From IMG/VR virus record IMGVR_UViG_3300025010_000044: a stretch of DNA of 64,000 bases, one strand, 5' to 3'. The stretch's first letter is position 1, and the number at the start of each line of letters is the position of its first letter. The position numbers and the translations under genes were made by a program. Below, piece by piece: positions 4,458 to 58,237 of this stretch. The notes beneath the pieces are model-generated. The model saw only the letters and a program-made list of their open reading frames with translations. It made no database searches and was not told the DNA's origin. This DNA comes from an uncultured virus (IMG/VR IMGVR_UViG_3300025010_000044). Its lineage: Duplodnaviria; Heunggongvirae; Uroviricota; Caudoviricetes.

Positions 4458-4910
4458 GTGAATAATCTAATATCAATCTTCGACACAATCCCGCGCGGGA
4501 TTTCCTTTGCTATAATAGCGAGGGAAGATAGACCCCATGGACGGGTTCCGGTAAATAGTTTTACCAGAATATTTGTTGAGAACAAACGGGAACGCTATAC
4601 CGAAAAATCTGAAATGGTATTGCAGCGATTCTGTAAGAACCTAAAAGATGAGGTTGACGGATTAACTTTTCAAAAACGGGTAGAAAAGAACGATCCATTT
4701 TTACCGGCGCAAGAAGTGAGGGAAGAACTTTCACACAAATTATGCGTAAGCGAACAAGCGCTAAGAGCATGGTGGAATCCTTGCGATAAGTCGGGGAACA
4801 AAATGGGCATTGGTGATCTGATAGCCTATACCGATAAAATGAAATCAACTTTTTTAATTGAAGCGTTACTAAATGATATAAAAGGATTGGTCCATGCCGG
4901 AAGTTGTTAA
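4458..4910 (+). CDS. Hypothetical protein, possible HTH regulator
   Basis: AAAGGAG RBS, GTG start; HTH-like LSHKLCVSEQALRAWW. Confidence 0.5.
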   Translation: MNNLISIFDTIPRGISFAIIAREDRPHGRVPVNSFTRIFVENKRERYTEKSEMVLQRFCKNLKDEVDGLTFQKRVEKNDPFLPAQEVREELSHKLCVSEQALRAWWNPCDKSGNKMGIGDLIAYTDKMKSTFLIEALLNDIKGLVHAGSC

Positions 4911-6891: not shown

Positions 6892-7272
6892 ATGAGTTCA
6901 AATAGAATAATTGAAGACCCATTCTATAAGATGAAATTTATTGTCTTTAGTATAAAAGATTTAAAAAATGTTGATGAGCAAACCCTATCGGCAATTAAAA
7001 AGCTTAGCGGATATGTTGCACTAAATAGGGGGAAAAGAGGGGCGGAACTCTACCCACAATATTTAACTATCAACCAAGACGAACCATATGCGGAAGAAGT
7101 ATTCGCGGTTATAAAAAGAGGGGAACAAAGCAAATCAAAAAGTGAGCTTATGTCAAATCTGGTTGAAACTTTAAAAATGGTTTATGATAAATATGCAGTG
7201 AAAGAAGGATTTTGGAGCCATGACCGGCAACAAATTCTCGAAGCAATTGCAAAGGCGGAGGGAATAAAATGA
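6892..7272 (+). CDS. Hypothetical phage protein
   Basis: AAGGAG RBS; YLTINQDEPYA motif; AIAKAEG C-terminus. Confidence 0.55.
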   Translation: MSSNRIIEDPFYKMKFIVFSIKDLKNVDEQTLSAIKKLSGYVALNRGKRGAELYPQYLTINQDEPYAEEVFAVIKRGEQSKSKSELMSNLVETLKMVYDKYAVKEGFWSHDRQQILEAIAKAEGIK

Positions 7273-8525
7273 AAAATCAACTTATAGGTTTATTTACCGC
7301 TGATTGGCATTTGGATAAAGACCCGAAAAGAAAAAGGAAAGCGTGTGAATCGCTTGACCAAATGGTGGAATATGTAAAAAACAATCATGTTGATTACATA
7401 GTTCATGGCGGAGATTTTTGGGAAACAAAACAAAACTTCGGCGAAAACAGCGGTGTTGAGTACGGTTTCCAATATCTAAAAGAATTGGCAAAGCATGTAA
7501 AAGCAATTATCATCAATAAGGGTAACAATAACCACGATTACGCCGGGAGTATTAGTCTTCTCCATCAATTGAGGGAGAACATTTTTGCTTACGAATACCC
7601 GGTTTCGCTTGCGCTGTACGATCACGTTAGTAATATACTTGGTGTTGATATTTTGCGTGATGAAGAAACCGGTTATGAAGAAGAACCGGAATTTATTGTA
7701 AACCTTATGCCTTATCCCACAAAGGGAATGATCGTTAGAGACATGAGCATTGATGATAATAATAAAGAGTTTGGAGAAGTGTTTGACGGATTAATGGATA
7801 TGTTCGGAATAACGAACAATAGATATAAATGTCCAAAAGCTTTTACCTTCCACGGTAACGTAAGAGGAAGCAGATTAAGCACAGGACAACCATTAACCGG
7901 GCAAGATATAATAATTTCCCCTCTATCATTACGGAAAGCCAAAGCCGATGTTTACGCATTTGGTCATATTCACAATTGGCAGGAGTTTGAGCCGGATATG
8001 TTTTACACCTCCTCTCTTTACAATTGCAATTTTGGGGAGACGGAACAGAAATATTTTATCGTTAGCAAATTCGATCAGACAGATGAAGGGGTAAAAGTTT
8101 CATCAGAGAAAATAAAGTTTAAGACAGTCCGGCCAATGGTAAATGTAACGGCGGAATTTATTAACGGCGAGTTTGTGATCAACCAGGAAGTGCCGGAGAA
8201 TGCTGAGGTAAAGATAAAGTATAAGATTGAAGAAGATTTGCAAGATCAAATTACCGCTGCAAAAAAGGAAGAGTTAAAGGCAAGGTTTGGGGCGGATGCC
8301 ATTCTTGAGGCTGACATTGTTCCTGTGCAGAGGGAAAGCCGCAGCGTAAAAATAATGGAGGCAAAAAATTTAGCTGAAGAATTTACCGAGTATTGCACAA
8401 TTACCGGAAGAGGTGAAGTGTTTAAGACAAACGGCGATGAAAAAATACTTAAACGCAGTTATCGTGAAAAGATTGAGTTGATTGAGCAAAATATTGCGCC
8501 GGTGGAAGTGCCGGAAGAGTTGTAG
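7269..8525 (+). CDS. sbcD: Mre11/SbcD-like metallophosphoesterase nuclease
   Basis: ADWH, GGD, GNNNHD, FHG, GHIH calcineurin-like motifs. Confidence 0.85.
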   Translation: MKNQLIGLFTADWHLDKDPKRKRKACESLDQMVEYVKNNHVDYIVHGGDFWETKQNFGENSGVEYGFQYLKELAKHVKAIIINKGNNNHDYAGSISLLHQLRENIFAYEYPVSLALYDHVSNILGVDILRDEETGYEEEPEFIVNLMPYPTKGMIVRDMSIDDNNKEFGEVFDGLMDMFGITNNRYKCPKAFTFHGNVRGSRLSTGQPLTGQDIIISPLSLRKAKADVYAFGHIHNWQEFEPDMFYTSSLYNCNFGETEQKYFIVSKFDQTDEGVKVSSEKIKFKTVRPMVNVTAEFINGEFVINQEVPENAEVKIKYKIEEDLQDQITAAKKEELKARFGADAILEADIVPVQRESRSVKIMEAKNLAEEFTEYCTITGRGEVFKTNGDEKILKRSYREKIELIEQNIAPVEVPEEL

Positions 8526-8565
8526 AATTAGTGGAAAGTAGAAAGTTAAAAGGAAGAGAAATAAG

Positions 8566-8886
8566 ATGGAAGAATTTGTAAGACATTTAAAATTTTTACA
8601 AGAATATTTCGATCTGGAAATGAACTACAGCACGAATGGATGGGAAGTTAAGGTAATACACTGGGGAGGATTGGTAGACGAGACACCTTATTTTGAAGTT
8701 GAAATGGATGAGCTGGATGACGCTATTAAACGTGCATATATTATCGGTTTAGAGATTATTGATGGTAAACACTTACAAAAGCGCAACATTAAAGCAGTAA
8801 TGGAGCAATTGGATATAACAGACGAAATATTTGATGAATTTGATAATGACGGAGATTTTGATGAATTGGATGAAGATGAAGTATAA
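8566..8886 (+). CDS. Hypothetical acidic protein
   Basis: ORF with acidic tail; its stop codon lies in the first GTATAAC box. Confidence 0.55.
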   Translation: MEEFVRHLKFLQEYFDLEMNYSTNGWEVKVIHWGGLVDETPYFEVEMDELDDAIKRAYIIGLEIIDGKHLQKRNIKAVMEQLDITDEIFDEFDNDGDFDELDEDEV

Positions 8887-8993
8887 CAGTGTGGAAACTT
8901 ATTTGCAGCGGCTTTAGGAACAACTTTAATGGACAATAAACTTAAACATATTAAACCATACCTCTTTGCAGTTATAAATTTTTTAGCGGTTGT

Positions 8994-9224
8994 ATGAGAA
9001 AAGTTGACATAAACATTTTCTTAGAATTTATATTCAAAAAAAGATTTTACAACGTACTGGACAATGATAAAAAACCGATTAAAATATTACAGATTAGTCG
9101 TGGTGTAGCAAGGTGCGTTTATGATGATGGTAGCAATTTAACTAGGTTGATACGGCGTGAGGATAAGATATTCCACATGCCACCATACTTGCTGGAACAA
9201 ATTCCCGATAAAAAAGATTTATAA
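8994..9224 (+). CDS. Cassette ORF 1, hypothetical
   Basis: Stop codon in TTATAAC; ATGA-coupled to a 22-aa leader at 8929-8997. Confidence 0.5.
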   Translation: MRKVDINIFLEFIFKKRFYNVLDNDKKPIKILQISRGVARCVYDDGSNLTRLIRREDKIFHMPPYLLEQIPDKKDL

Positions 9225-9262
9225 CGTAGTTGCAACTTAAAAGCTGCCAAGAATAAAAGAGA

Positions 9263-9679
9263 ATGAACTTAATTAATAAAATATCAAATAACAAAATGCC
9301 AAAAACAGATTTGCAGTCTTTTAGAGTTGTGAGTTATTTTGATTTTTGGCGGGAGTTAGACATGAGTTTGATACAATGTGATAATTGTGGTTGCGTGGAG
9401 AATACAGCGTGTACAATGATGACCGCTAAATGGACACCAAACGATTATGACTGGACTGGAATTGAAGATAGGAAAGGGATGAAACTTTGCTGTATTTGCC
9501 TACCCACTAAATATAGTGATGGGACGGAAGTAGAAAGAGCAGGCAAATGGCATGGCAGATTTGACAGAGTATTTTTAGAAAAAGGCAAGTGGAAAACGAA
9601 TAATGTTGGGAATCTTGAAAACATCGAAACTGGTGATACCAACTACAGTAAATATATATTAGCCAAAAAATCAAAATAA
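9263..9679 (+). CDS. Cassette ORF 2, Cys-rich hypothetical (CDNCGCVENTA; WHGRF)
   Basis: Start inside the attC-like loop, or ATG 9362 with GGGAG RBS; stop in AAATAAC. Confidence 0.6.
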   Translation: MNLINKISNNKMPKTDLQSFRVVSYFDFWRELDMSLIQCDNCGCVENTACTMMTAKWTPNDYDWTGIEDRKGMKLCCICLPTKYSDGTEVERAGKWHGRFDRVFLEKGKWKTNNVGNLENIETGDTNYSKYILAKKSK

Positions 9680-9815
9680 CGTAGTGGCAACTTAAAAGCA
9701 AAAACGAAGAAGGAATAAATTAAATGGAACAAATTAAAACAATAGCAAAACCCGAAACGATAAAAGACAGTTTTTGTCTTTTAGAATTGCGAGTTATAAA
9801 TTTTTTGGCGGGCAT

Positions 9816-10049
9816 ATGAAAGGTGTTGAAACTGGGTGGAGCGTTGAACGATATGTTTGCCCTTCGTGTAAACGGAAGGGGTTGTATTATGCTGGGAATT
9901 ATGGCGGATCAACCCCCTGGTTTTGTATGTATAGAAATTGTAAAAATAGACACCCAGACTTGCAAGATGTAATTGATGCAAACCCAATTTTATTAACTGA
10001 AAACCCCAAATGGAAACACTTTAAAAAGGTTAGCCAAAAAGATTTATAA
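9816..10049 (+). CDS. Cassette ORF 3, Zn-ribbon hypothetical
   Basis: CPSC...CMYRNC. ATGA-coupled to a 31-aa leader at 9724-9819. Confidence 0.55.
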   Translation: MKGVETGWSVERYVCPSCKRKGLYYAGNYGGSTPWFCMYRNCKNRHPDLQDVIDANPILLTENPKWKHFKKVSQKDL

Positions 10050-10099
10050 CGTAGTGGCGGCTTTGCTGATTGCGGAAACTAATTAAGAAAGGAAATATT

Positions 10100-10417
10100 A
10101 TGAAAACTAAAGAACAAATATTGTGTGACATTGTTGGGAGAATCCATGCAGAACTAAAAGATTCTGTGCGATATAACGATGCGTTGACGGCAATGGAACA
10201 ATATGCAAATCAGTTAGCAATTCAGCAAGAGCCGCGAGTTAGCCATGATTTTTGCGGACAATATGAAAAATTGATTGAGGTTTTAATAGACTTATTGTAC
10301 GAAGACCCGCACAATTGGAGTGCAAGACCTTGCCCAACTTGTAGAGTAATTACAACCATTGCGGGTAAACCGTTTGGTTGTGATAAGAAAAGAGAACTGA
10401 GCAAAAATGCTGGCTAA
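10100..10417 (+). CDS. Cassette ORF 4, hypothetical (CPTC)
   Basis: AAAGGA RBS and ATG inside the attC-like loop; stop in GGCTAAC. Confidence 0.55.
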   Translation: MKTKEQILCDIVGRIHAELKDSVRYNDALTAMEQYANQLAIQQEPRVSHDFCGQYEKLIEVLIDLLYEDPHNWSARPCPTCRVITTIAGKPFGCDKKRELSKNAG

Positions 10418-10446
10418 CTAATACTTAACCCGCAAGGAGAAAAAGA

Positions 10447-10719
10447 TTGGAATTTACTCGTTATTACGGTAAACATAAGAGGCAAAACGATTGCGTAATA
10501 CAAACTTCTGTATTACAAGAAAAAGGTAAAACTTTACAAATTAGAATTGATTCTGAACTTAACAACGTTCTTGAATCTTTAGCTAAAGAGTTAAACCAAA
10601 ATCCATCTAAAGTTGCAAGAGATATTTTAGAAGATTTTTTCTTAACAAAAAAATTATTGGAACAAAAAGAAGATGTTGAAGATTTTCTTAATCGGACAGA
10701 AAGTAAAAAAGATAACTAA
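10447..10719 (+). CDS. Ribbon-helix-helix DNA-binding protein
   Basis: TLQIRIDSELNNVLESLAKELNQNPSKVARDIL. Confidence 0.65.
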   Translation: MEFTRYYGKHKRQNDCVIQTSVLQEKGKTLQIRIDSELNNVLESLAKELNQNPSKVARDILEDFFLTKKLLEQKEDVEDFLNRTESKKDN

Positions 10720-12342
10720 ATGCCAAGATCATTAATTCCTTGGGAATATCCGCTGCGTGATTGGCAGCAGGACGCCAACGAAATAGTAATACGAAAAGTG
10801 AAAGCCAAAGAGCAGGATGCTTTGCTTGTAGCAACGCCGGCATCCGGTAAAACCCGAACGGCTTTGCGGTTTGCACACAAACTCTATTTTATGCACTACA
10901 TAAAAAGAATTGTTGCGGTGGTTCCAACAGAGCACTTAAAAAAGCAATGGGCTGAAGACGCGCATCTTTACGGAATTGATCTTGACCCAATGGTGGAGAA
11001 CCGTATTGGAAAAGAAGGAAGCGACTACCACGGAGTTGTGCTTACCTATGCGCAACTTGGTATGGACGCGGATATTCATAAACATTTTACTGATAGCACA
11101 AGTACCTTGGTAATATTGGATGAAATCCATCATGCGGGGGAAAGTAAAACATGGGGAGATGCACTAAGAACGGCTTTTGAGAATGCTTTTTTTAGATTAG
11201 CATTAAGTGGAACGCCATTTAGAAGAGATAATAATCCTATCCCTTTTGTGAAATATGTAAATGATGTTAGTGTTTCGGATTATGTTTATTCCTACCAGCA
11301 AGCAGTTGAGGATAATGTTTGCAGGGCGATATACTTTCCAGCTTATGATGGAATAATGACTTGGCAGACGGACGGAGTGACTTATAAGCATAATTTTGAA
11401 GAGCAGATCAATCAGGCAAGAGAAAGTGAAAGATTAAGAACCGCATTAGATCCGTTCGGTGAGTTTATGAAGCAATTCTTTCTTGACGCTGATAAAAAAT
11501 TAAATGAAATAAGGAGAGGCAGTCACCCGGATGCGGGAGGATTGGTCTTGGCGATCGATCAAGAGCATGCGGCGAGAATTAAGAAGATGATATTCGAACT
11601 TATCGGCGAATCTCCGGTAATAGCGGTGAGTGACGATAAGAATGCGAGCAAACATATTAAGGAGTACAAGCGAAGAAAAGATAAATGGTTGATTAGCGTT
11701 AAAATGGTTTCGGAAGGGGTTGACATCCCTCGTTTGCGTGTTGGGGTTTATGCAACAAATGTAGAGAGCGAATTATTCTTCAGACAGGTTACGGGAAGGT
11801 TTATAAGAGTATTGGCACATCTTAAAAGTCAGGACGCATATTTGTACATTCCTAAGCGGCACGAGCTGGTAAGATTTGCCAGAGAAATTGAACAGGAAAG
11901 AGATCATGCGCTTAATACTGCCAAAGAGAAATATGATAAAGATTTGTTCGGAAAAGAAATTGAACCGAGAGAGAAGGAGCAAAAGGATTTCAAAGTAATT
12001 TCAGCAGAAGTAACCGGCACGATGGAGATAAAAACAAATTTTACGGATAAGATTTCCACAATGTTTGGTTTGCCAAAAGCAAAAGCAGCGCAGATAGCAC
12101 AGAGCGTAGTACAGCAGCCCACTGAAGTGGAGATACCGGTATTTGAGAAGATAAAGACGCTTAGGAAAGAGATAAATGATTTAGCTATGGTTTATGCAAA
12201 GAATAGAGGAAACGGCACCGTGGATTGGCAAATAGGGCATAAGGACTGGATTAAAATAGGGGGAAGGAGTATTGAGCTTGAAACTTATCCGGAGTTAATG
12301 CGGAGGCGCAGATGGCTACAAAATAATTTGCATAAAAGTTAA
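10720..12342 (+). CDS. SF2 DEAD/DEAH-box helicase (ResIII-like)
   Basis: LRDWQ, ATPASGKT, DEIHH, SGTP, MVSEGVDIP, QVTGR. Confidence 0.9.
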   Translation: MPRSLIPWEYPLRDWQQDANEIVIRKVKAKEQDALLVATPASGKTRTALRFAHKLYFMHYIKRIVAVVPTEHLKKQWAEDAHLYGIDLDPMVENRIGKEGSDYHGVVLTYAQLGMDADIHKHFTDSTSTLVILDEIHHAGESKTWGDALRTAFENAFFRLALSGTPFRRDNNPIPFVKYVNDVSVSDYVYSYQQAVEDNVCRAIYFPAYDGIMTWQTDGVTYKHNFEEQINQARESERLRTALDPFGEFMKQFFLDADKKLNEIRRGSHPDAGGLVLAIDQEHAARIKKMIFELIGESPVIAVSDDKNASKHIKEYKRRKDKWLISVKMVSEGVDIPRLRVGVYATNVESELFFRQVTGRFIRVLAHLKSQDAYLYIPKRHELVRFAREIEQERDHALNTAKEKYDKDLFGKEIEPREKEQKDFKVISAEVTGTMEIKTNFTDKISTMFGLPKAKAAQIAQSVVQQPTEVEIPVFEKIKTLRKEINDLAMVYAKNRGNGTVDWQIGHKDWIKIGGRSIELETYPELMRRRRWLQNNLHKS

Positions 12343-12499
12343 TGTATGTATTGTTTTATAAAATAACATTTTTTAAGTTTGAGACAGAGATTGAGCAAAA
12401 TAAAAATTTTTCCCAACGGCAGTTTGACTTCCCTCGCATTAAAGCTCAATCTCTTAATGTGCAAACTGCCGTTCATTTTTATTTCAAAGGAGTTCTAAG

Positions 12500-15244
12500 A
12501 TGAGATTACTTTCATTAAAATTACGCGGTGCCATTGGCATACGGAAAAAATTAGGTTTAGAAGAAATTGAAATTGATTTTAGCCAATTTGGACCGGGATT
12601 AATAGCCATAACCGGAGACAACGGCTACGGCAAAACAACGATCATAGACAATTCACAACCATACAGAGAACTCCCCAGCAAACCAGGAACGTTAGAAGAA
12701 CACTTCGAATTAAAAAACTCATACCGAATACTAAAATTTTCATTTGATGAAAACATCTACGAATCAAAACTAATGATTGACGCGCTTACCGGAAAAAGTG
12801 AAGTTTACCTATACAAAGATGGAATAGCCTTGAACGATGGACTGAAAGGAAGTTACGATAGAGAAGTGACTAAACTTTTCGGTTCACAAAAATTATTTTT
12901 TACTTCTGTTTTTGCAGCGCAGGCAAGCAAGGGAATATTTTCTTTACAAGAAGGAGACTTGCGCAAATTATTTTATGAAATCCTTGGCATAAACGAATAC
13001 AGCCCGCGCGAAGAAAATGCAAAAAAGTATCTTCAAAAAGAGCAAAATAAATTAGAAGTTTTGGAACGTGAACTAAAAACCCTTACTGAAGAAAAAACAG
13101 AGTGCAATACTTCAAAAGAGGATATCGAAAAGAAGATTTATGAGCGGGAAGAAACAACTTCATCTAAAAAAGATACCGAAGCGAAAATAAAGTTGGTTAG
13201 GGAGGAAATAGAGAACTGCAATATTCGCATAGCAGAACTTAATCTTAAAATTGAGCAGCAGGAAGAAATTACTGTAAAGATAAATGAACTTGTGGAAGAT
13301 GTTGAATTCCTTGACGAGAAAAAAGAACTTGAACTTCAAGAGATTGAAGGACAGAAAACGGCGGAGATAAACACATTCAACACTTCGAACGAATTTGATA
13401 AACACATTAAGGAACTTGACACAAAGAAGAACTATCTTAATGAAGAAGCAGAGAAAGAGAAAACGGGAATCACTCAGCAGAATTTTGATTATGAAGAAGA
13501 AATTAAAAATAATGAAATTCAAAAAATATATTTTGAGACGAAGATAACCCGGAGTAAGACGATACTCGGGAACCGGGGAACGATAGCGTTAAATCTTGAC
13601 GAAAAGAAAAAACGGAGCGAAGAAGCCGCAGAATTGCTTGCAAAAGAGAAAGAACATCTTTTAGAAATAGGAAAATTGCAAGAGAGGAAAGAAGGGGAAG
13701 AAAAACTTTTACAAGTTTTGCGCGAAAGTTACGCAAATACGGATAAAGTCAAATCTCAGAAAGATCATCAACTTACTACGGTAAATGAGTTAATTGCATC
13801 TTTAGAGGAATTAAAAAAAACCGGATTAGACCGGTTAAAGGAAGAAATCTCAACAATTGATAAAGTGCCATGCAGCGAAGTTGTAGGACGGGGTTGTATG
13901 TTCCTTACAAGAGCGATGGAAAGCAAGGATACGCTGAAAGATGTTGAGAATGATTATGATGCTAAAATAGTCGGTAAGGAAGAAGAGCGCGATGCAATAT
14001 TTTGGGAAATTGAAAACACTGAAAAGTTTTTGGATGAGGCTGATGAGGAAATAAAAGCCAAAGAGAAAGAGATCAAAGAGAATTTTACCGATCAAATAGC
14101 ATTGATAAATGAAGACGTGAACGTATTGCGTGTGAAAATAAAGGAAGTTGCGGGAAAGTTAGCCGAACTTGCAAAAACCAATTGGGAAGCGCTTGATAAA
14201 GAACTTGCTGAAGCAGAAAAGAACGCCGAGTTATGGGAAAGTGAAATTAAGAACATTAATCAGACAAGTGAAGATAAACGCAACAATATTAAGCATTTGC
14301 AAGAAAGAGTTGTTAACATACAAGAAAGGCTAACAAATAACTTACAAGATGTTGAAAATCAAATACTTACCTATAAACAGTTATTGGAAAAAGAAAAGGG
14401 TACGATCTTAAATTTCTTTTTGGAGAAGAGAAATAGCACGGCGGCTAAGTATGATGAGAAGAAAGAAAATTTGAATAAAGATTTAGCTGCAAACAAATTA
14501 AAACTTGATGAGACGCTAAAACCGGCGAAGATACATTGCGAACTAACTTTACGGGCAAAAAGGGAAGAACTTGAAGAAGCGGAAATTTTACTTAAAGAAT
14601 CGGATAAAAAAATAAACGATCTCCAAATAGAGGTTGTTGAACTTAATGAAAAATTGGTGAGAAAGCAGTTTTTGGAAGATCAGATAAACAGCAAGAATGG
14701 GGAAAGATTGTTTATTGAGGAGGAAATAAAGCAATGGGGGATTATAAGAGAAAGTATGTCAAAGACTGGAATTCCGGTTCTTAAGTTGGAAATCTCCGGT
14801 TCTGAAATATCGAGGTTAACAAATGAATCTTTGAGCCACTACGAAAACAAATTTCGAATAGTTTTTGAAACCACAACTTTTACCAAGGATAAGAAAAAGC
14901 AGATAGAAGTTTTCAAAATAAAAGTTTTGGATGAAGATGGAATTTGTAACATCATGTACAAAAGCGGCGGGGAGAAAGTTGAAGTTGAAACGGCACTACA
15001 ACTTGCAATTGCTCATTTTAAGAGGACACAGGGAGCAATAAAAGCCGATACAGGCTATTTGGATGAGAGCGATGGACCATTGAGTTTAAAAAATGCACAA
15101 CGTTATTTTAAGGTGATTGAAGAAGCGCATAAACGAAGCGGGGTTTACAATACGATAGTTATAACTCACCGCCCGGAGTTGATAGAACAAATTAACCAAC
15201 GAATTGAGCTGTATGATGGATATTTTGAGATAATTAGGAATTAG
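12500..15244 (+). CDS. sbcC: Rad50/SbcC-like SMC ATPase
   Basis: GDNGYGKT, long coiled coils, hook-like C...C, SGGE, LDE, ITH. Confidence 0.9.
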   Translation: MRLLSLKLRGAIGIRKKLGLEEIEIDFSQFGPGLIAITGDNGYGKTTIIDNSQPYRELPSKPGTLEEHFELKNSYRILKFSFDENIYESKLMIDALTGKSEVYLYKDGIALNDGLKGSYDREVTKLFGSQKLFFTSVFAAQASKGIFSLQEGDLRKLFYEILGINEYSPREENAKKYLQKEQNKLEVLERELKTLTEEKTECNTSKEDIEKKIYEREETTSSKKDTEAKIKLVREEIENCNIRIAELNLKIEQQEEITVKINELVEDVEFLDEKKELELQEIEGQKTAEINTFNTSNEFDKHIKELDTKKNYLNEEAEKEKTGITQQNFDYEEEIKNNEIQKIYFETKITRSKTILGNRGTIALNLDEKKKRSEEAAELLAKEKEHLLEIGKLQERKEGEEKLLQVLRESYANTDKVKSQKDHQLTTVNELIASLEELKKTGLDRLKEEISTIDKVPCSEVVGRGCMFLTRAMESKDTLKDVENDYDAKIVGKEEERDAIFWEIENTEKFLDEADEEIKAKEKEIKENFTDQIALINEDVNVLRVKIKEVAGKLAELAKTNWEALDKELAEAEKNAELWESEIKNINQTSEDKRNNIKHLQERVVNIQERLTNNLQDVENQILTYKQLLEKEKGTILNFFLEKRNSTAAKYDEKKENLNKDLAANKLKLDETLKPAKIHCELTLRAKREELEEAEILLKESDKKINDLQIEVVELNEKLVRKQFLEDQINSKNGERLFIEEEIKQWGIIRESMSKTGIPVLKLEISGSEISRLTNESLSHYENKFRIVFETTTFTKDKKKQIEVFKIKVLDEDGICNIMYKSGGEKVEVETALQLAIAHFKRTQGAIKADTGYLDESDGPLSLKNAQRYFKVIEEAHKRSGVYNTIVITHRPELIEQINQRIELYDGYFEIIRN

Positions 15245-36554: not shown

Positions 36555-39500
36555 ATGTTTTTATATAAATTACCGGATTATGAGGGGGGATTTGTTACTA
36601 AGTCTATTGAGTGTAACTGCATTGTTACGCGCGATGATGCAGGGCATTTACTGAATAGTAAACCGGTAAATTGTGTAAAAAAGGGAATGAACACAAATTT
36701 TGGAAAGGTTGTGGATTATTCGAAGAATTTTGTAATTCTTAAAAAGGGGAGTGAGCTTAAAAGGTTAAAAAGGGAAGAGCTAAATAATGTTTTGTTAAAG
36801 AGTTTGGACCAACACGAAGCGGTGCCGGAAGATAAAGAAGAGATGAAAGTATCGGGGAAGTTTGAAACGATTGCCGGGAAAGTATTGGTGAAGAGTGAGA
36901 GAGAAATTATTAGGGATGTATTAACTGATCCGGACAGAGTATTGAGAAAGGGAAAGATAGTTACCTTTATTAAAACGATAAACGGAAAAGAGGTTGAGGC
37001 GAAGGTTGAAGGAAAAGGGATTTTCAATAATACGTTGATGTTAAAAGGAATTACAGAAACGAATTTAACAATTTCAAAAAGACTTTTGTTTAAGGGAGTT
37101 GCGGTAGCTTTTAAAACTCCGAAAGTGTTTAATATTAATCAGTCGGCAGTCAGCAGTGGGCAGTCAGCAGGAGGTGGAACGGCATGGAACGCAAAGGGAG
37201 GAATGAAGCCAAACCACAAATATCTTGAACGTAAACCGGCGAAGAATGGAGACGGATATATTTATCTGTATGAACTTCCTTCCGGTAAAAAGGAATGGAG
37301 AGATGAAGCCGGAAAATCTGTTGAAGGAGAAAGCGCGAAAGGCAGCGCGGATTATCAGTTAGAAGATTTTAAGGTAGGTGATGTAGTTAGACAAGATAAT
37401 AAACTTGGCCGGATAACGGAAACCACAACAAATATGCTTGCGGTAAATTTTGGCGGGGAAATGAAAGTGATCAACAAGAAAGAGCATGTTGAAAAGGTTA
37501 AGCAGCATCAACTGATGAAGGAAGGAGACACGATACAGTATGAGGGGAATGATGCAAAGATATTGAGGATAACGGGCAAAGCGGCATTAATAAACACGGC
37601 AGATAATAAGCTGAAGGTGATCAATCTTGAAAAGCAGTTGGAGAAATACGAACCGCAATCCGCCAAAGGCGGAGGAGAGGGCAGATTAAACAAGTATAGC
37701 GATGTTTACCAGGGTGAAGCAGAGCGAAGAGTAGGTCAAGGAGGAGCGGATAATTACAATATCAGTTATGAAGAGCAGCCGGGGTATAAAGATTTTGTTA
37801 GCGCGGCACAGAAAACGGGATTTGGACGAAAGAACGATCTTGAAATGGTAAAGCGCGTTGAAACAGAAAACGGACTTAGAACGGTAAGATGGAATTACAA
37901 CCCGGAGGATCAGAATATTAGTTTTATGGTTGACGGAAAAGAAGATTATACTATGAACTTTATGGGGAAGAAGTACAAAATTAGGGATATTACGGATGAC
38001 GGGTACAGTTTGGAAGACGCAGAAACCAAGGAACGGGGATTGTTCCTTTCTCACAAAGATTATAATAATGATTTGAAACAACAAAGAGACGAAGAGAGAA
38101 AGAATGTTATAGTTGAAAGATCGGGAGGGGTGAATGGAATTGAAACGGTAAGAGAACCGGCGCGAACATTTAGTTTTAAGCCGGAATATACGGAAGAGGA
38201 ACGGGCAAGATTTGAGAAGCGGGGAGGAAGCAGACCGAGCAGATGGACGCGAAGAAAAGATGAGCCTTTGCAAAGCGAAGAGGAGAAGAAACGATTAACC
38301 GAATTGCAATCTGAAAGGGATAAAAAGAATAAGGAAGTTTTAGGGACAAAAGATTTTGCCGATTTTGAAAAGTTGCATAAGGAGCGGGGTTTTGAAATTG
38401 GGGCAAATAGATTTCACGCGAGCAAAGAAATTGAAGCGGGAGGAAGAACGTTTAGGATAAAGAGTGAGTTTAAACCGGAAAAGATGAGCTGGCAGACTTC
38501 AATTGATGGACCTGTTAAGAAATTACAGTTGGGAGAAAAGCGTTTACCTATTACGGATATTTCAAAAGATAAAGTTTTCTACCATGAAGGGGGAGATGAA
38601 AAAAGTATAACGTTTGATGAGTTGAAAACGATTAACGGGAAAGGTTTGTTTGAGCCGACAAAAGAGAGTAAGGGAATTATAAGTAATTTAGACCCGGTGA
38701 AGATTTATTTTGGTAACGATGATAAGGATGTAACGAGCGGAAGTTATGAGATAGTTGAAGCTGATGAAATAATTGCATCGCATAAAACGGATGGAACGCC
38801 GAACAAAGATTACACAATATCAGACGCGCAGAATAGAGACCGCAGCACCCCGCAAAGTATAGCACAAATAAATAAGATAGCAACGAATCCGAATTTTGAC
38901 TTTTTAAGCGACAGTAAGACCGCCCAGGACGGCGCACCTATTGTTGACGAAGATTATAACGTAATTGCGGGGAACGGGCGAGCATTGGGGGTGCAACTTC
39001 ATTATGGACAAATGGGGAATAAAAACGGAAGTGAGAAAAAACAAAATTTAAGTGCAAAAGATGCGGATAAGAAAATTTTCGATTTGATGAAGCGGATAAT
39101 GCCGCATAGAGAAGATACGCAAGAATCCGCTATAAAATATGCCAAAAATAATCTTGGAGGGGGTAGAAGTGATGTTCTTGTTAAAGAGGGAAAATTAAGT
39201 GCAGATGAATCAAAATTTGTTAGTGAATATGCGAATGGAGATTTTGCAGAGAATAATTTATCTATCGCATTAAATAATAAAAGTGAGAAATACCGAAGTG
39301 ATCTTTTAAAGAACGCTGAAAAGTATGGTTTTAGCCGCGATGATGTTGAGAAGATGAAACAGCCGGTATTGGTAAGGCGAACGAATGTTGATAAAAAGGA
39401 AGCGCAACGATTAGGAGCGATAAGCAATACTTCTCAAATGCTTGCTACAGAGGAACGGGAAGCAGCAAAGGGAAAGGCAACGAGGATTGATGACGCAACG

Positions 39501-42059
39501 ATAAATAATTTAGCCGATATGTTTACCAAGGGTAACCATGAATCGCTTAACCAGTATTTGGATGAGATCGGACCGGATGTAGTAGGTGAGTTATTGAAGA
39601 AGAAAATTATCCCGGAGAATGAAGCGCACTTGTATATTGACCCGAAGAGCGGAAAGATGGATGCGGGGCACAAAGAAAAGGTTAAGCAGATACTTACGCA
39701 ATCGGTATTGGGAGAGAGCAGCCAGCATTTTGAGAAGATACCGGAAGCGGCAAGAGCGGGAACGGTTAAAAGTCTTGGTGATATTTTTGCGCTGAAGGGG
39801 AAAGCGGGTGATCTTGTTCCTCACTTGCAGGAAGCGGTAAAGATGTTGGCGAAGTATGAAGCGGTTAAGGATAATTTTAAATCGCCGGATGATTTTGTTA
39901 AGCAAGCCGCCAATGACGCATTTGAACCGTTGAAGGGGAGTAAGGAAGAATTGGCTTTATTTGATCTATTAGCAGACCCGATAAGAGAAGTAACGAAGGA
40001 AAACGGAAAGAAGGAAAAGAAAAACGTAATAAGTGATTTTATCCGTAAATATAAGTTAAGCATGGAAGGGGATATGTTTTCAGGCGGGCTTCCTCCGGAA
40101 GCGGCATTTGCAAGGATATTTAAACCCAAATATCAAAACGGAGTAAATACCGAAGAGGCATATAAACAACAAATACGAGATGCGATTAAGGTTGGGCATA
40201 AAATTCCCAAAGAAGTTCTAGATAAATACCCGGATTTAGAAAGAGAATATAATTCGCAGCATGTGTTGAAATCGATTAGTAGAAAAATGTTTATATTTGG
40301 TAAAAAAGTTTTTATGAAATCTATGGACATGGCAAAGAATGTTTTAGCGCCAAGTAAGAAGAACCCGGCGGTGAAGAGATGGCAAGCCGTAGAGAGCAAA
40401 ACACAAACAACAAATGACAAAAAACAAGGGGGTGAGAACAAACAAGAACTTTATAATAAATTCAAGAAAGAATTAGAAGATAAACAGTCAAAAGGAGAGA
40501 TTAATTCAAAAACAAAAAACTCTGCTCTTTATAAAAAACGAGTTGAACTTGGGTTGCAAAATGATCCATCGATAAGGGCTGTTATAGCTACGAAAACAAA
40601 AAGGAAGCCGCGTCCATCCGATTTTGATAAAAGCGACGAACCATTATTTTATGATGAAGTTAAAGATGTAATTGAACAATTAAATTTCCCGATTTACGAA
40701 GTGCAAAATTGGACGGATGAAAACGGAAATCCAGAAATAAATTACTGGGGATACGATAAAATGGAAGCACTAAAAGAATTGGACGATAGTGATAGAGTTG
40801 AAGGATTTGAAAACAGAGAACAGGATGTAAACCTCTACGAGCATAAACCAACTTTTGATAAAGCGAAATTGAAAGAGTTCCAAGAACTATATGAGACGTT
40901 ATCACAAGATGAATTTGAAGAAAAATTCCCCGACAAGAAAAGTGTGGCGAATTTTGTTGAATATGATGAAAACAGAGGGGGAAACGTTATTGATAGCAGA
41001 ACTATAAAGCCAATTAATGAAACAACGGAAGAAATATTAAGTGATGTACAAAATAAGTTCGGCGGGAAATATGTTGACGTCCCAATAAAGTTTGATACAG
41101 AAGGGGATACAATAGAATTTATGAGATTAAGAATTGCTAATCATACGGGGAACTATTATAGTATTGGTGGAGATGGGGACAGACCAGGTTTGTCTATTGT
41201 TATTGCCAACCAAGACCCAACGTATAAGCGGTTTGGTCGATCCGAAAATGAAATACCTAACGAATATCATTTTGATGAAGATGCAACGGCGGAAGAAATT
41301 ATAGACTTTATTAATGAGAAGATAGAAGAAAAAAAAGCTGATGTTTCCTCGGAAACATCAGCTACAAATGAAAGCAAACCACAATTGCTTAAGACAGAGC
41401 CGAACGCCAAAAGCGGAGCGGATGACTTAGGCAGTGATAAACGTGCCGAAGCACAGACGAAAAGTAGTGAAGAGAAAAACAAAAAGCAAGTGCCGCAAAC
41501 GGAGACGGAGAATTTTATTCACCCGAGCATTAAAGAAATTGATAAAGAGTTGGCAAGTGAAGTTGTATCAGCTTTCAACAAACTTTGCGAAATGTATGGT
41601 GTAGATAAAATTAAAGAAAAGATTACTATAAAGGCGTTTTCTATATCAATCCCCGGCACGGGGAAAAGTCCAATAGCATTTGTAAAAAGGATGGAAGATG
41701 AGGGGCTAACATTATATCTTGATGCCGGAAAGTTTCGGAACAAATCAGATTTCGAAGTAAGGATAAAACAACAAATAGAGTTTGGATTTTTACCCAAAGT
41801 TGGATTGACACCGGTAAAAATAATCATAACGCATGAGTTCGCCCATATTTTACAACACATAAATTATGATACCGATTATATTAATAAAATTTCAAAAGAA
41901 GGAACGGCGAGTGAAGATGCACACTTAATTTGTAAATATGCTGAGAACAATAAAATGGATGAGGAGGCTTGTGCATTTATAATTGATTATGCGGGGCAAG
42001 GCAATGAGATAACTAAGAGAATACTCATGGAATTTTATAATAAACAGAAGGAGAAGTAA
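36555..42059 (+). CDS. Large polyvalent protein: DdrB-associated ParB-like domain, C-terminal HEXXH metallopeptidase-like domain
   Basis: AQNRDRS..GAPIVD..VIAGNGR..MKQPVLVR; IITHEFAH near the C-terminus. Confidence 0.7.
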   Translation: MFLYKLPDYEGGFVTKSIECNCIVTRDDAGHLLNSKPVNCVKKGMNTNFGKVVDYSKNFVILKKGSELKRLKREELNNVLLKSLDQHEAVPEDKEEMKVSGKFETIAGKVLVKSEREIIRDVLTDPDRVLRKGKIVTFIKTINGKEVEAKVEGKGIFNNTLMLKGITETNLTISKRLLFKGVAVAFKTPKVFNINQSAVSSGQSAGGGTAWNAKGGMKPNHKYLERKPAKNGDGYIYLYELPSGKKEWRDEAGKSVEGESAKGSADYQLEDFKVGDVVRQDNKLGRITETTTNMLAVNFGGEMKVINKKEHVEKVKQHQLMKEGDTIQYEGNDAKILRITGKAALINTADNKLKVINLEKQLEKYEPQSAKGGGEGRLNKYSDVYQGEAERRVGQGGADNYNISYEEQPGYKDFVSAAQKTGFGRKNDLEMVKRVETENGLRTVRWNYNPEDQNISFMVDGKEDYTMNFMGKKYKIRDITDDGYSLEDAETKERGLFLSHKDYNNDLKQQRDEERKNVIVERSGGVNGIETVREPARTFSFKPEYTEEERARFEKRGGSRPSRWTRRKDEPLQSEEEKKRLTELQSERDKKNKEVLGTKDFADFEKLHKERGFEIGANRFHASKEIEAGGRTFRIKSEFKPEKMSWQTSIDGPVKKLQLGEKRLPITDISKDKVFYHEGGDEKSITFDELKTINGKGLFEPTKESKGIISNLDPVKIYFGNDDKDVTSGSYEIVEADEIIASHKTDGTPNKDYTISDAQNRDRSTPQSIAQINKIATNPNFDFLSDSKTAQDGAPIVDEDYNVIAGNGRALGVQLHYGQMGNKNGSEKKQNLSAKDADKKIFDLMKRIMPHREDTQESAIKYAKNNLGGGRSDVLVKEGKLSADESKFVSEYANGDFAENNLSIALNNKSEKYRSDLLKNAEKYGFSRDDVEKMKQPVLVRRTNVDKKEAQRLGAISNTSQMLATEEREAAKGKATRIDDATINNLADMFTKGNHESLNQYLDEIGPDVVGELLKKKIIPENEAHLYIDPKSGKMDAGHKEKVKQILTQSVLGESSQHFEKIPEAARAGTVKSLGDIFALKGKAGDLVPHLQEAVKMLAKYEAVKDNFKSPDDFVKQAANDAFEPLKGSKEELALFDLLADPIREVTKENGKKEKKNVISDFIRKYKLSMEGDMFSGGLPPEAAFARIFKPKYQNGVNTEEAYKQQIRDAIKVGHKIPKEVLDKYPDLEREYNSQHVLKSISRKMFIFGKKVFMKSMDMAKNVLAPSKKNPAVKRWQAVESKTQTTNDKKQGGENKQELYNKFKKELEDKQSKGEINSKTKNSALYKKRVELGLQNDPSIRAVIATKTKRKPRPSDFDKSDEPLFYDEVKDVIEQLNFPIYEVQNWTDENGNPEINYWGYDKMEALKELDDSDRVEGFENREQDVNLYEHKPTFDKAKLKEFQELYETLSQDEFEEKFPDKKSVANFVEYDENRGGNVIDSRTIKPINETTEEILSDVQNKFGGKYVDVPIKFDTEGDTIEFMRLRIANHTGNYYSIGGDGDRPGLSIVIANQDPTYKRFGRSENEIPNEYHFDEDATAEEIIDFINEKIEEKKADVSSETSATNESKPQLLKTEPNAKSGADDLGSDKRAEAQTKSSEEKNKKQVPQTETENFIHPSIKEIDKELASEVVSAFNKLCEMYGVDKIKEKITIKAFSISIPGTGKSPIAFVKRMEDEGLTLYLDAGKFRNKSDFEVRIKQQIEFGFLPKVGLTPVKIIITHEFAHILQHINYDTDYINKISKEGTASEDAHLICKYAENNKMDEEACAFIIDYAGQGNEITKRILMEFYNKQKEK

Positions 42060-42367: not shown

Positions 42368-42452
42368 AAGGAAGAAAGAATATTTAAGTTAACATATAAG
42401 AATTTATATGAATTAACATAACAAACAACAAAACTCTAAAAGGAGAAAGACC

Positions 42453-42917
42453 ATGGCACAATTCCCCCTATTAACCAATGCTCAAGTTTTAGCAAAGGAC
42501 TTTATGAATCAAGGAGACACTGTAAAAGCGTTAGACCTTTTGCAGAATCTTCCTTATGTAAACGTTTCGGCCGCATTGGCAGCGGGCGCAACGGGCGTAA
42601 CTACAAACGAGCACATCTTTGTAGCGCCGTGCAAGTTAGAAATACTTGAGGCAAAGTTCATCACCACTGCTGTTAATACCGGTACAAGCAACGAACCGGA
42701 AGTAAAATTGTTAGCGGGCACCGACATTGTTGGCGTTAGCGGTGCAATTGTTTTAGCAGGCGCGGCGGTTGGCGATGTTGCGACTTTAACGCTTGATGCG
42801 GCTGAGGTTGTAATAGCGGCCGGGACAAAACTTATTCTTAGAATAGTTAATCCTACTGCAACAATTACTACTCCGTTAACAGGCAAGCTTCAGTTCATTT
42901 GGAAACCAACTGTTTAG
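42453..42917 (+). CDS. Putative virion structural or decoration protein
   Basis: Ala/Thr/Val-rich beta-type composition; own RBS, upstream late motif and terminator. Confidence 0.55.
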   Translation: MAQFPLLTNAQVLAKDFMNQGDTVKALDLLQNLPYVNVSAALAAGATGVTTNEHIFVAPCKLEILEAKFITTAVNTGTSNEPEVKLLAGTDIVGVSGAIVLAGAAVGDVATLTLDAAEVVIAAGTKLILRIVNPTATITTPLTGKLQFIWKPTV

Positions 42918-43496: not shown

Positions 43497-44535
43497 TAGT
43501 TTATGTTTTCTGAAACAAAAACCAGATTGCTACGCTGATATATTATTCCAAGATCCGCCGTATGCGTTAGGGAGTGAAGTTATTATACGGAAGGATGGAA
43601 AACCGGATTATAAAAAAGCCGTAGATTTTATGAATAAATGGGATATGCCAAACGGCGATTTTTCAATGATTGAGCAAAAGAATTACAATCCTCCCGGCCG
43701 TTACCCGGCGCAAACTTTTATTGAGTGCATTTGTGATGAAGTAGTAATTAAAAAAAATGAGGCACAGCCATATAGTTACAGCGGGAAAGAGTATCAGAAC
43801 AAAGAAACATCAATGTTTAATGGGGATAAACCGCAAGCACCAAGTAATTATAATGATAAAGGAAGCGGGCAGATACATACTAATCCTAATTGCCCGTGTG
43901 CAGTATTGGATAGACAAAGTGGAGAATTGCAAAAAGGGAAAGGGGACTATGTACGCAAAAACGGTTCGGTACAATTTCTAAGTGCAATGGGGCAAGATAA
44001 AACAGACTTACCAAACGGAATTTCAGATACCGGCGGATGCAGTAAAATTTTACACAAGTGTGAATATGATGAAGAAGAGCATGATATTTATTTTTACTAT
44101 CCAAAAGTAAGTAAGGCAGAGCGCAACGGCGGACTGAATGAGTTGGAAGATAGTTTAATGGCACGAAGCGGAGGAGCGCAACAGGCAGAGCGAAACGGCG
44201 AGACTGAATATTTGCAATCTCACATCGGGATGAATAGAATTTCAACCGTTAAAAATAATCATCCCACATTAAAGCCAATTGCATTAAACAAAAGAATTTT
44301 ATCTCTGTTCAAGACACCGAACGAACAGAAAATACTTTATCCTTTTGCCGGAACCTTTTCCGAAGTGATAGGAGGATACTTAGCGGGGTTTACAAATTAT
44401 GAGGGTTGTGAGTTGGAAGAGGCATGGATAACCATAGGTGAAGCTAGGTTTAGTTACTGGATAAATAGAGAGAAAAAAGAAGTTGCCGGGAATGAAGATC
44501 AATTTAATTTATTCATCAAGACCGAGGCGGCGTAA
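43462..44535 (+). CDS. N6/N4 DNA methyltransferase, possibly internally deleted
   Basis: DPPY, GRYPA, NNHPTLKP, YPFAGT. Confidence 0.7.
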   Translation: MKSQQNKIQCCDSLCFLKQKPDCYADILFQDPPYALGSEVIIRKDGKPDYKKAVDFMNKWDMPNGDFSMIEQKNYNPPGRYPAQTFIECICDEVVIKKNEAQPYSYSGKEYQNKETSMFNGDKPQAPSNYNDKGSGQIHTNPNCPCAVLDRQSGELQKGKGDYVRKNGSVQFLSAMGQDKTDLPNGISDTGGCSKILHKCEYDEEEHDIYFYYPKVSKAERNGGLNELEDSLMARSGGAQQAERNGETEYLQSHIGMNRISTVKNNHPTLKPIALNKRILSLFKTPNEQKILYPFAGTFSEVIGGYLAGFTNYEGCELEEAWITIGEARFSYWINREKKEVAGNEDQFNLFIKTEAA

Positions 44536-57445: not shown

Positions 57446-58237
57446 TTGTTAAAAATTATTGATGAAAATATTGTACGGAGTTTGAGACGATTCGGGCAAA
57501 CGGTAAAGCATTACCCGGGTACGTTGTGCAGTTGTATAGGTGAAAATAACGGTGTGCCTTTGTTAAACCATACTTGCAACCAGGGTTATTATTACGGCGC
57601 ACCGGAAACGATAATTGCAATAAGAACGGCGATATCATACAAATATCTAAATACGCCGAACGGGGTTATTTATGACGGAGGCGCAACGTTTACCATACCA
57701 AGATTGAATTTAAGCGGAGCCGAACAGAGAGCTTACTCAGTTATTACACACGGCGATATTTTGGTTTGCGATAATAAAACCAGGCGCGATACGGATATAC
57801 TGAAGCGCGGAACTCGTGATTTTATTTACGCTTTTGATATTACAGAAGTAATTGGCATATACCGTAATAACACAAAATATGACGCAGCCGATTATACCAT
57901 AATTGAAGACGACTATAAAACGTTACTTGGTGATGACGGTTTGCCGCTTACCGATGAAAACGGCGTACCAACGGGAGAGGTTAGAGATAAAGCGGATATT
58001 GTGGGTAAATTAATGGCGGTTGTTTGGGCAACCGGCAAAGGACCGGCAACGGGTGAAAGTTACACGGTAGAATTCATCGCGAAGCAACAATTTAAAGTAT
58101 GGGAAGATGCGGGAAGCGATAGGGGAACGGATGAAAACAGACTACCGAAAAAGATGCTAACCGTGCTTAGGAGATTTGTTAGTCCGGTTGAGAATAATCT
58201 TGACACGGTAGAAACGCAACAGGAGATTTATACATGA
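57446..58237 (+). CDS. Head closure / neck protein
   Basis: CSC...C..GY.Y, LPKK...LRR; position. Confidence 0.6.
   Translation: MLKIIDENIVRSLRRFGQTVKHYPGTLCSCIGENNGVPLLNHTCNQGYYYGAPETIIAIRTAISYKYLNTPNGVIYDGGATFTIPRLNLSGAEQRAYSVITHGDILVCDNKTRRDTDILKRGTRDFIYAFDITEVIGIYRNNTKYDAADYTIIEDDYKTLLGDDGLPLTDENGVPTGEVRDKADIVGKLMAVVWATGKGPATGESYTVEFIAKQQFKVWEDAGSDRGTDENRLPKKMLTVLRRFVSPVENNLDTVETQQEIYT

Follow-up and report, generated by a model that had tools for sequence, protein, structure and literature searches.

A probable integron-type gene-cassette array of reversed polarity in a temperate phage likely to infect Ignavibacteriales

The uncultured virus record IMGVR_UViG_3300025010_000044 (Caudoviricetes), of which a stretch of 64,000 nucleotides (the window) was analyzed here, very probably carries a genuine integron-type gene-cassette array at 8.5-10.7 kb. 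This array, a cluster of attC sites lacking an integrase (CALIN), would lie at a fixed hotspot, flanked by the sbcD-like gene and the helicase gene, in the genome of a temperate groundwater phage probably infecting Ignavibacteriales. CALINs are defined in IntegronFinder by at least two attC sites and the absence of an integrase; three intact attC sites were found here inside 1.1 kb, and intI is absent. Since the window holds no integrase gene, the array is presumably served by the integron integrase (IntI) of the host. The cassettes are the mirror image of ordinary cassettes and are co-directional with the flanking phage genes.

Structure of the attC sites and organization of the cassettes

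In the available text of Nivina et al. (2016; PMC5027507), the attC bottom strand is described as bearing AAC in its 5' arm and, on the opposite arm, extrahelical bases that are usually G16 and a conserved T23 or T24. The 6-bp stem between these two bases is stated there to be required for efficient recombination, and the crossover takes place at AA/C of the bottom strand (the slash marks the cut). The three palindromes with paired arms and unpaired T and G listed in the initial annotation were found to be present on the + strand at 9219..9339 (W1), 9674..9799 (W2), and 10044..10244 (W3). They share the same layout: TAAC is followed by 7 unpaired nucleotides, 5 bp, 6 bp, a stem of at least 4 bp and a loop of 65-140 nucleotides, and the return arm shows an unpaired T, 6 bp, an unpaired G, 5 bp, 3 unpaired nucleotides, and GTTA. 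Counted inward from R'' (the GTTAnnn box), the G is at position 16 and the T at position 23, and since these bases lie on the arm opposite AAC, as in the published layout, the + strand corresponds to the attC bottom strand. In W1, R' is TTATAAC and R'' is GTTATTT, and the arms are CAACT-TAAAAG-CTGC (9233-9247) and GCAG-T(9317)-CTTTTA-G(9324)-AGTTG. The unpaired T and G are located at 9777 and 9784 in W2 (R'' GTT at 9793), and at 10221 or 10222 (both registers fit) and 10229 in W3, the long-loop site (R'' GTT at 10238). AAC on one arm and GTT on the other were found in W1-W3 as well as in five sites of related phages.

This geometry is specific to the array. Both strands of the 64-kb window were scanned for AAC-N7-5 bp-6/7 bp-4 bp ... 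4 bp-N-6/7 bp-N-5 bp-N3-GTT with at most one non-pair, and the only three hits were W1, W2, and W3 (with zero, one, and zero non-pairs, respectively), the unpaired bases being G and T in all of them; 30 dinucleotide-preserving shuffles gave no hits in any case. A shifted register with A and C bulges, which arises if G-T counts as a pair, was rejected, and the all-Watson-Crick register with G and T was confirmed. The motif TAACGTAGTKGC occurs in exactly three copies in the window, all of them in the array. When the sites were folded as single-stranded DNA, the minimum-energy structures of W2 (-16.5 kcal/mol, z -2.47) and W3 showed the predicted hairpin with both bulges, as did that of W1 over its own span (9215-9343), but not with flanks (145 nt). 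Only four Rfam matches were obtained (E 0.38-8.9, far under the gathering scores), none of which fell on the array sites or belonged to an attC family.

The crossover positions expected from the integron mechanism are 8886/8887, 9224/9225 (W1), 9679/9680 (W2), 10049/10050 (W3), and 10417/10418, and at each of the five the TAA that ends the ORF (open reading frame) before it falls within the AAC box. Because the crossover occurs at AA/C of the 5' arm, each attC belongs to the gene downstream of it. A cassette would then extend from the C after one AA/C to the AA of the next one, and consist of an attC and, downstream of it, a single small ORF that terminates at the TAA within the next TAAC. Four such cassettes can be delimited on the + strand. 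Cassette 1 (8887..9224) carries a decayed site, W0, followed by a 76-aa ORF (8994-9224). Cassette 2 (9225..9679) carries W1 and a CxxC-rich 105-aa ORF (9362-9679) assigned to phrog_11861, the match covering amino acids 34-136 of the long cassette-2 ORF (E 4.7e-37). Cassette 3 (9680..10049) includes W2, a 31-codon leader ORF (9724-9819) and a 77-aa ORF (9816-10049), and cassette 4 (10050..10417) includes W3 and a 105-aa ORF (10100-10417), the TAA stop of which lies within GGCTAA/C. The initial annotation had counted four cassettes: three of their sites are intact, while that of the first cassette has not survived as such, W0 (8887-8977) having retained the 5' arm and the GTTATAAAT end but lost the matching 3' arm. 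Neither a hairpin on folding nor a match with the covariance model described below was detected for W0 (tested over 8882-8975).

The two ends of each cassette were found to be complementary, as had been claimed, with values of 89-100% over 14-19 nucleotides in the four cassettes of the window: 8971-8984 with 9212-9225 (93%) in cassette 1, 9333-9347 with 9666-9680 (15/15) in cassette 2, 9793-9806 with 10037-10050 (93%) in cassette 3, and 10237-10255 with 10401-10419 (19 nt, 89%) in cassette 4. The end sequences vary from one cassette to another. In a 9 x 9 comparison including the cassettes of related loci, a cassette's own far end was the best partner in seven cases out of nine, the second best in one case, and non-complementary in one case. 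The complementarity, which spans 13-19 nucleotides, exceeds the 7-nt box (window 8971-8990, 9333-9352, 9793-9812, 10238-10257, and their partners) and stops just before the conserved GGCGGGAG/GGCGGGCA preceding the start codon. It may serve the hairpin of an excised circle or bring together the two ends of the mRNA.

The ORFs of the four window cassettes are carried by the attC bottom strand and have their attC upstream; the canonical orientation, with the ORF on the top strand and the attC downstream, was not found in any of them. Since the attC is upstream of its gene, the attC loop carries a start codon. In seven of the eight phage attC sites, an internal ATG opens a frame reading out through GTT, while in the eighth the frame stops at GTT (window 9263, 9724-9819, and 10100; in the related loci L005, 5154-5240 and 5591-5740; in L006, 4948; in L099, 99-242 and 800). 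Four of these frames are fused in frame with the cassette gene, and two terminate at the start codon of that gene, through ATGA (9816) in the window and through TAATG in L099. In cassette 2, the leader ATG (9263) is in the W1 loop, in frame with the cassette ORF; in cassette 3, the leader ORF terminates in ATGA on the cassette start codon; and in cassette 4, the ORF begins in the W3 loop and crosses the 3' arm. In attC sites of the likely host order, outward-reading ORFs were found in only two of eight cases for the bottom strand, and in one of eight for the top strand. Ribosomes translating across the 3' arm would melt the mRNA hairpin and be delivered to the cassette gene, and start-codon attC sites might be a compact solution to the presence of a strong hairpin ahead of every gene.

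On either side of the four cassettes there is a variable unit. The leftmost one (8566..8886, + strand) encodes an acidic protein of 106 aa giving no Pfam or PHROG hit; its stop TAA (8884-8886) lies within TATAA/C, and no attC is present on its left. The C-terminal end of this ORF consists of two 27-nt tandem units (window 8821-8874, 74% alike) coding for D/E-rich repeats. At the left boundary of the array, the homology with L006 stops at window position 8546, and no AAC or GTT junction was established near this point. The rightmost unit (10418..10715, + strand) has no recognizable hairpin; AAC is present at 10416-10418 and 10714-10716, and the unit encodes an Arc-like protein of 90 aa (10447-10719) showing a weak match with phrog_582 (E 4.9e-4). 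This unit is absent in L099 and replaced in L006, although its first 40 or so nucleotides are conserved in L006 and L098 (window 10414-10457 matches L006 5292-5335). This conserved stretch, which contains AAGGAG and a TTG start, may represent a half-site or an attI-like remnant.

PADLOC analysis of 18 cassette proteins gave only two weak hits (E about 5e-4), which were set aside. A query of 401 genomes of the host order did not retrieve the cassette-2 protein, but it had no positive control and therefore shows little; relatives of this protein (48-49%) occur in three large phage contigs, without any attC context.

Comparison with host integrons and cassette turnover in phages

The host was probably a member of the Ignavibacteriales: a 97%-identical helicase is encoded on a contig whose title names an Ignavibacteriaceae MAG (metagenome-assembled genome), and this relative is classed as a provirus in IMG/VR. 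Integrons have been mentioned in Ignavibacteriae in the available text of PMC9024848, and the integron-integrase model TIGR02249 scored above the cut-off in 74 of the 151 genomes sampled from this order. In three of the host integrons (L118, L120, and L121), intI comes first, with the array after it on the same strand, which also carries all the ORFs of at least 90 aa and is opposite the attC bottom strand; the reversed polarity proposed in the initial annotation therefore holds for the phage ORFs, which are on the bottom strand. The repeats adjoining intI in these three integrons show the same 7/3-nt spacers, 5 bp, G, 6 bp, and T as the phage sites, and in one host array there are five copies of a 182-nt repeat. 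The similarities extend to the TATAAC/GTTATA boxes, the 5' spacer (GGCGTTG/GGTGTGG in the host, GTAGTGG/GGCGTGG in the phage) and, where this could be checked, the complementary cassette ends (10 nt in one L120 cassette). The host integrons differ from the phage array in that an intact intI precedes the array, the ORFs are on the top strand, and the attC loops measure about 120-150 nucleotides and are nearly identical within an array. Among 401 genomes of the host order, only AT-rich loop matches of at most 55 nt were obtained with the DNA of W1.

A covariance model (R1) was built from nine host attC bottom strands only, all located next to bona fide integron integrases in Ignavibacteriales genomes. 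In its alignment, 90.9% of the cells were paired, a value reached in none of 500 shuffles, while slid controls gave 27-46%. R1 recovered W1 (45.9 bits, E 9e-8, R1 E-values being rough), W2 (18.5 bits), and W3 (24.1 bits) at full length and on the + strand only; the sole other hit in the window was a partial one (42389-42487, E 0.26). The attC nature of the sites, put forward in the initial annotation, is supported both by the published layout and by the model of host attC. Full-length + strand matches were also obtained in the relatives, at 36.0 and 27.7 bits in L099, 35.9 and 27.0 bits in L005, and 34.1 bits in L006. In the search of two whole relative records and three other loci (212 kb), the three hits obtained were all within the array. 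In the L099 sites (84-222 and 727-867), a third unpaired base (T or A) is visible by eye inside the 6-7-bp stem, as in the three-bulge attC type included in the text available from PMC5027507; the cassette between these two sites lacks complementary ends.

Relatives of the window were collected by helicase searches, which yielded three viral contigs, five metagenome contigs, and one genome contig; two of the five metagenome contigs are identical to viral loci, and one is identical to the window over the compared stretch. The virus record G001 (65.9 kb, 73% complete) is near-identical to the window and identical across 8547-11558. A blastn search with window 7000-12500 gave no match in the phage GenBank collection. 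Between flanks that are 79-90% identical at the DNA level, five versions of the locus (the window, L005/L007, L006, L098, and L099) have unrelated contents. The flanks are the SbcD-like nuclease gene on the left (7269..8525, + strand; Pfam Metallophos, phrog_100; DNA identity 79-88% in relatives) and the helicase gene on the right (10720..12342, + strand; Pfam ResIII, phrog_16; protein identity 91-97% in relatives). The last cassettes of the window, L006, and L098 differ, yet each is joined to the same flank immediately behind AAC, as GGCTAAC/TAAT, GCCTAAC/TACC, and CCCAAC/TATC, respectively (here the slash marks the junction), and in L099 the cassette end GGGCTAAC immediately precedes the helicase start. 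The gene-acquisition hotspot suggested in the initial annotation is thus recognizable in the relatives, in which this position is filled by other cassettes joined at AAC; the crossover is at AA/C of the 5' arm and not, as had been supposed, at the GTT of the 3' arm. The cargo of the relatives includes the C-terminus of an N6/N4 DNA methyltransferase (L098), DUF7446, and PHROGs without known function.

Contigs of sequencing runs were also inspected, leaving out the contig parts without cover in X5, X7, and X9. A joint linking 9812 to 10030 (side 21 nt) was rejected as evidence of excision: as it is located on the inverted repeat flanking cassette 3, it is best read as an inverted-repeat assembly artefact. 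In run X4, a contig of 819 nt matches only 10414-10455 and is preceded by unlike DNA, which hints at another last cassette. In L006, two short GC-rich hairpins (CCGCCAGAGGCGG and CAGCCTTCGGCTG) follow the sbcD-like gene at 4522-4565, and none are present there in the window.

The return-arm motif of W1 and W2 hit one other viral contig (record G406; L132/L136, 7000-9700), which encodes Mu-type transposition proteins, a terminase, a portal protein, and a head protease. Three R1 hits (41-59 bits) were found there. One of the at least three attC sites of this contig shares about 93% identity with W1, loop included, but belongs to a cassette whose gene and ends are not those of the W1 cassette, and these ends are self-complementary (18/18); the mean column identity between W1, W2, and this site is 79%. 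The cassette ORFs of G406 are mostly on the bottom strand, and one cassette carries two top-strand ORFs, one of which looks RHH-like (ribbon-helix-helix) by eye. Also encoded there are a tyrosine-recombinase tail of 30 aa and a small Lar-like protein, the match of which (E 2e-4) is below the cut-off. A short-loop attC-like hairpin was seen by eye on the minus strand of L132 at about 760-810.

The DNA of the window is that of a phage: the genes for the SbcD-like nuclease, the helicase, the SbcC-like ATPase (12500-15244), and a DUF5131 protein are all on the + strand (Pfam, PHROG), as are the six small ORFs separating the nuclease gene from the helicase gene. SbcD and SbcC are the two halves of a nuclease cutting hairpins and palindromes. 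The hairpin-rich array sits between the SbcD-like and SbcC-like genes, which may be a coincidence. Elsewhere in the window there are three very long + strand ORFs, at 36555-42059 (1834 aa), 44535-51062 (2175 aa), and 58234-61956 (1240 aa).

The integrase and the rival explanations

A complete integron would have an attI site, a Pc promoter and, beside the array, the integrase, identified by TIGR02249 above the cut-off; all that was found of the integrase is an 84-aa C-terminal remnant in records G002 and G004. The ORF in question (L005 5733-5987, also present in L007) lies between the array and the helicase gene and matches positions 246-314 of the integron-integrase model, namely the last 69 positions, with 102 bits as against 74 bits for XerC/XerD; it is 57-69% identical to eight IntIs of the host order. 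It is a remnant and cannot be active. The initial annotation placed the integrase in trans, and this proposal fits the lack of intI in the near-identical record, the abundance of IntI in the host order, and the intI remnant beside the array of a relative; that the recombination is performed by the host IntI itself is what we infer from these facts. The phage DNA would have to be single-stranded in a host expressing a chromosomal integron integrase, and this enzyme would recombine the folded attC bottom strands at AA/C, excising cassettes as circles and inserting others. The cassettes would be co-transcribed with the phage genes.

Several points weigh against an active cassette array of this kind. 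No match with the integron-integrase model was found in G001, which is 73% complete, and none above the cut-off in the one MAG holding a relative as a provirus; the intI remnant of L005 is on the strand of the cassette genes, unlike the layout in the host, where intI is upstream of the array and co-directional with the attC top strand. The host assignment depends on a single contig of a binned MAG. The contigs of four runs showed neither circular cassettes nor joints of precise excision, and no attI was recognized, the conserved stretch at 10418-10457 having been viewed by eye. The R1 scores of W2 (E 0.038) and W3 (E 0.0028) are modest, the E-values of this model being rough. The bottom and top strands are nearly equal in stability (mean difference -0.4 kcal/mol), in phage and host sites alike, and the arm spacers of 7 and 3 nt depart from the "usually five to six" given in the available text of PMC5027507, although the 7/3 spacers are shared by the host sites. 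One cassette, L099_cA, has no complementary ends. Lastly, part of the array may be fixed, given the decay of W0 and the lack of a hairpin site in the units 8566-8886 and 10418-10715.

Some of these points suit a fossil array, the product of a single capture of an attC cluster on which no integrase acts any longer, the differences between phages having arisen by homologous or illegitimate recombination between co-infecting phages at the conserved flanks and similar attC bodies. The phage records contain no intI apart from the L005 piece, which is only a remnant, W0 is decayed, two units lack sites, neither an excision joint nor a circle was seen in the contigs, and the attC bodies of W1, W2, and G406 are similar enough (79%) for homologous exchange. 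The joining of three distinct last cassettes to one flank, in each case at the position directly behind AAC, is not readily explained in this way, and cassette-specific self-complementary ends, found in seven cassettes out of nine, are predicted by site-specific circularization and not by homologous exchange. Most of the sites have also kept the G16/T23 geometry, with arms that differ and yet pair, and IntI is common in the host order. We therefore regard a fossil array as improbable, while leaving it some weight.

The hairpins might instead act at the RNA level in the phage operon, as RNase III sites, terminators, or translational operators, for example, their likeness to attC being incidental. 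They are located on the sense strand between co-oriented genes, seven of the eight phage sites have a start codon and an ORF crossing the 3' arm, and the complementary ends (13-18 nt) would pair the 5' and 3' ends of the mRNA of each gene. An exact attC geometry and matches with a model made from host attC only would be unexpected in unrelated RNA elements, the hairpins match no Rfam family, and the turnover at AAC and the intI remnant would be left unaccounted for; this explanation taken alone is very unlikely, but a role at the RNA level on top of recombination could still be part of the best explanation. Slightly less likely again is that the sites are the substrates of a phage-encoded recombinase, either the 350-aa tyrosine recombinase or the adjoining recombinase-like ORF present about 13 kb upstream in relatives. 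G002, G003, and G004 each encode a tyrosine recombinase of 349-351 aa, next to which L011 has a 326-aa ORF that is serine-recombinase-like by sequence reading only. The 350-aa enzyme was nevertheless rejected as the acting one: it is not IntI-like (31-32 bits on the integron-integrase model, positions 12-181) and, by eye, lacks the IntI-type C-terminal motif of the L005 fragment. In addition, the geometry of the sites is that described for IntI, and the same type of site occurs in the Mu-like phage, which has a different recombination module. Recombination of an integron-type array by the host IntI thus accounts best for the data.

Relation to known systems and significance

Integrons are known chiefly as bacterial gene-capture devices. 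CALINs in phages are already known: in the available text of Qi et al. (2023; PMC9892861), three complete integrons, one In0, and 17 CALINs are reported in 10,705 NCBI phage genomes, and IntI1 recombined five of the six phage attC sites tested. Like the present array, these phage CALINs have at least two attC sites and small cassettes, lack intI, and reside in phage genomes, and DNA methyltransferases are part of the cargo in both cases (five there, L098 here). That text names no Ignavibacteria phage, and describes neither arrays with all the genes on the bottom strand, nor start codons in attC loops, nor turnover at a hotspot in close relatives, nor attC sites common to unrelated phages. Nor did the open-access literature searched yield a phage array in which the bottom strand carries every gene, the attC loops contain start codons, or close relatives show turnover; the mirror-image polarity, the loop start codons, and the hotspot turnover are what the present case adds.

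The sites themselves resemble the canonical mobile and Vibrio attC, as described in the available text of Nivina et al. (2016; PMC5027507), in their AAC/GTT boxes, G16, T23/24, 6-bp stem, unpaired central spacer, and variable terminal structure. They differ in the spacer (about 5-6 nt per arm there, 7 and 3 nt here), in the end complementarity of 13-18 nt as compared with a 7-nt box, and in that the gene is on the bottom strand. Another parallel is with ORF-11 and ORF-17 of attI1 in the available text of PMC11511950, where a short translated ORF within a recombination site upstream of a cassette gene has been proposed to supply ribosomes; in the phage array, the ORFs are inside attC, one per cassette, and end on the start codon or are fused in frame, and their leader function would be of the same kind.

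The integron recombination mechanism preserves the polarity of cassettes. Since polarity is preserved, phage and host cassettes are not simply interchangeable with their expression kept, and the reversed polarity points to a separate, phage-adapted cassette pool. It is conceivable, and we propose this tentatively, that Ignavibacteriales phages maintain a pool of mirror-image cassettes of their own, with the attC first, on the coding strand, and its loop serving as the translation start region. Such a pool, distinct from that of the host, would circulate by means of the host integrase among unrelated phages (an SbcCD/helicase-type temperate phage and a Mu-like one), with a hotspot located inside an operon.

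Among close relatives present in metagenomes, the cassettes of a single hotspot are all that differs, and the junctions coincide with the cut site of the integrase, which makes this a case of natural turnover. The sites of the array offer a directly testable system. The cargo, which includes a DNA methyltransferase and the weak Lar-like match below the cut-off, fits accessory genes acting against host restriction. If host IntI does act on phage DNA, integrons would constitute a gene-exchange route among phages, as well as between phage and host.

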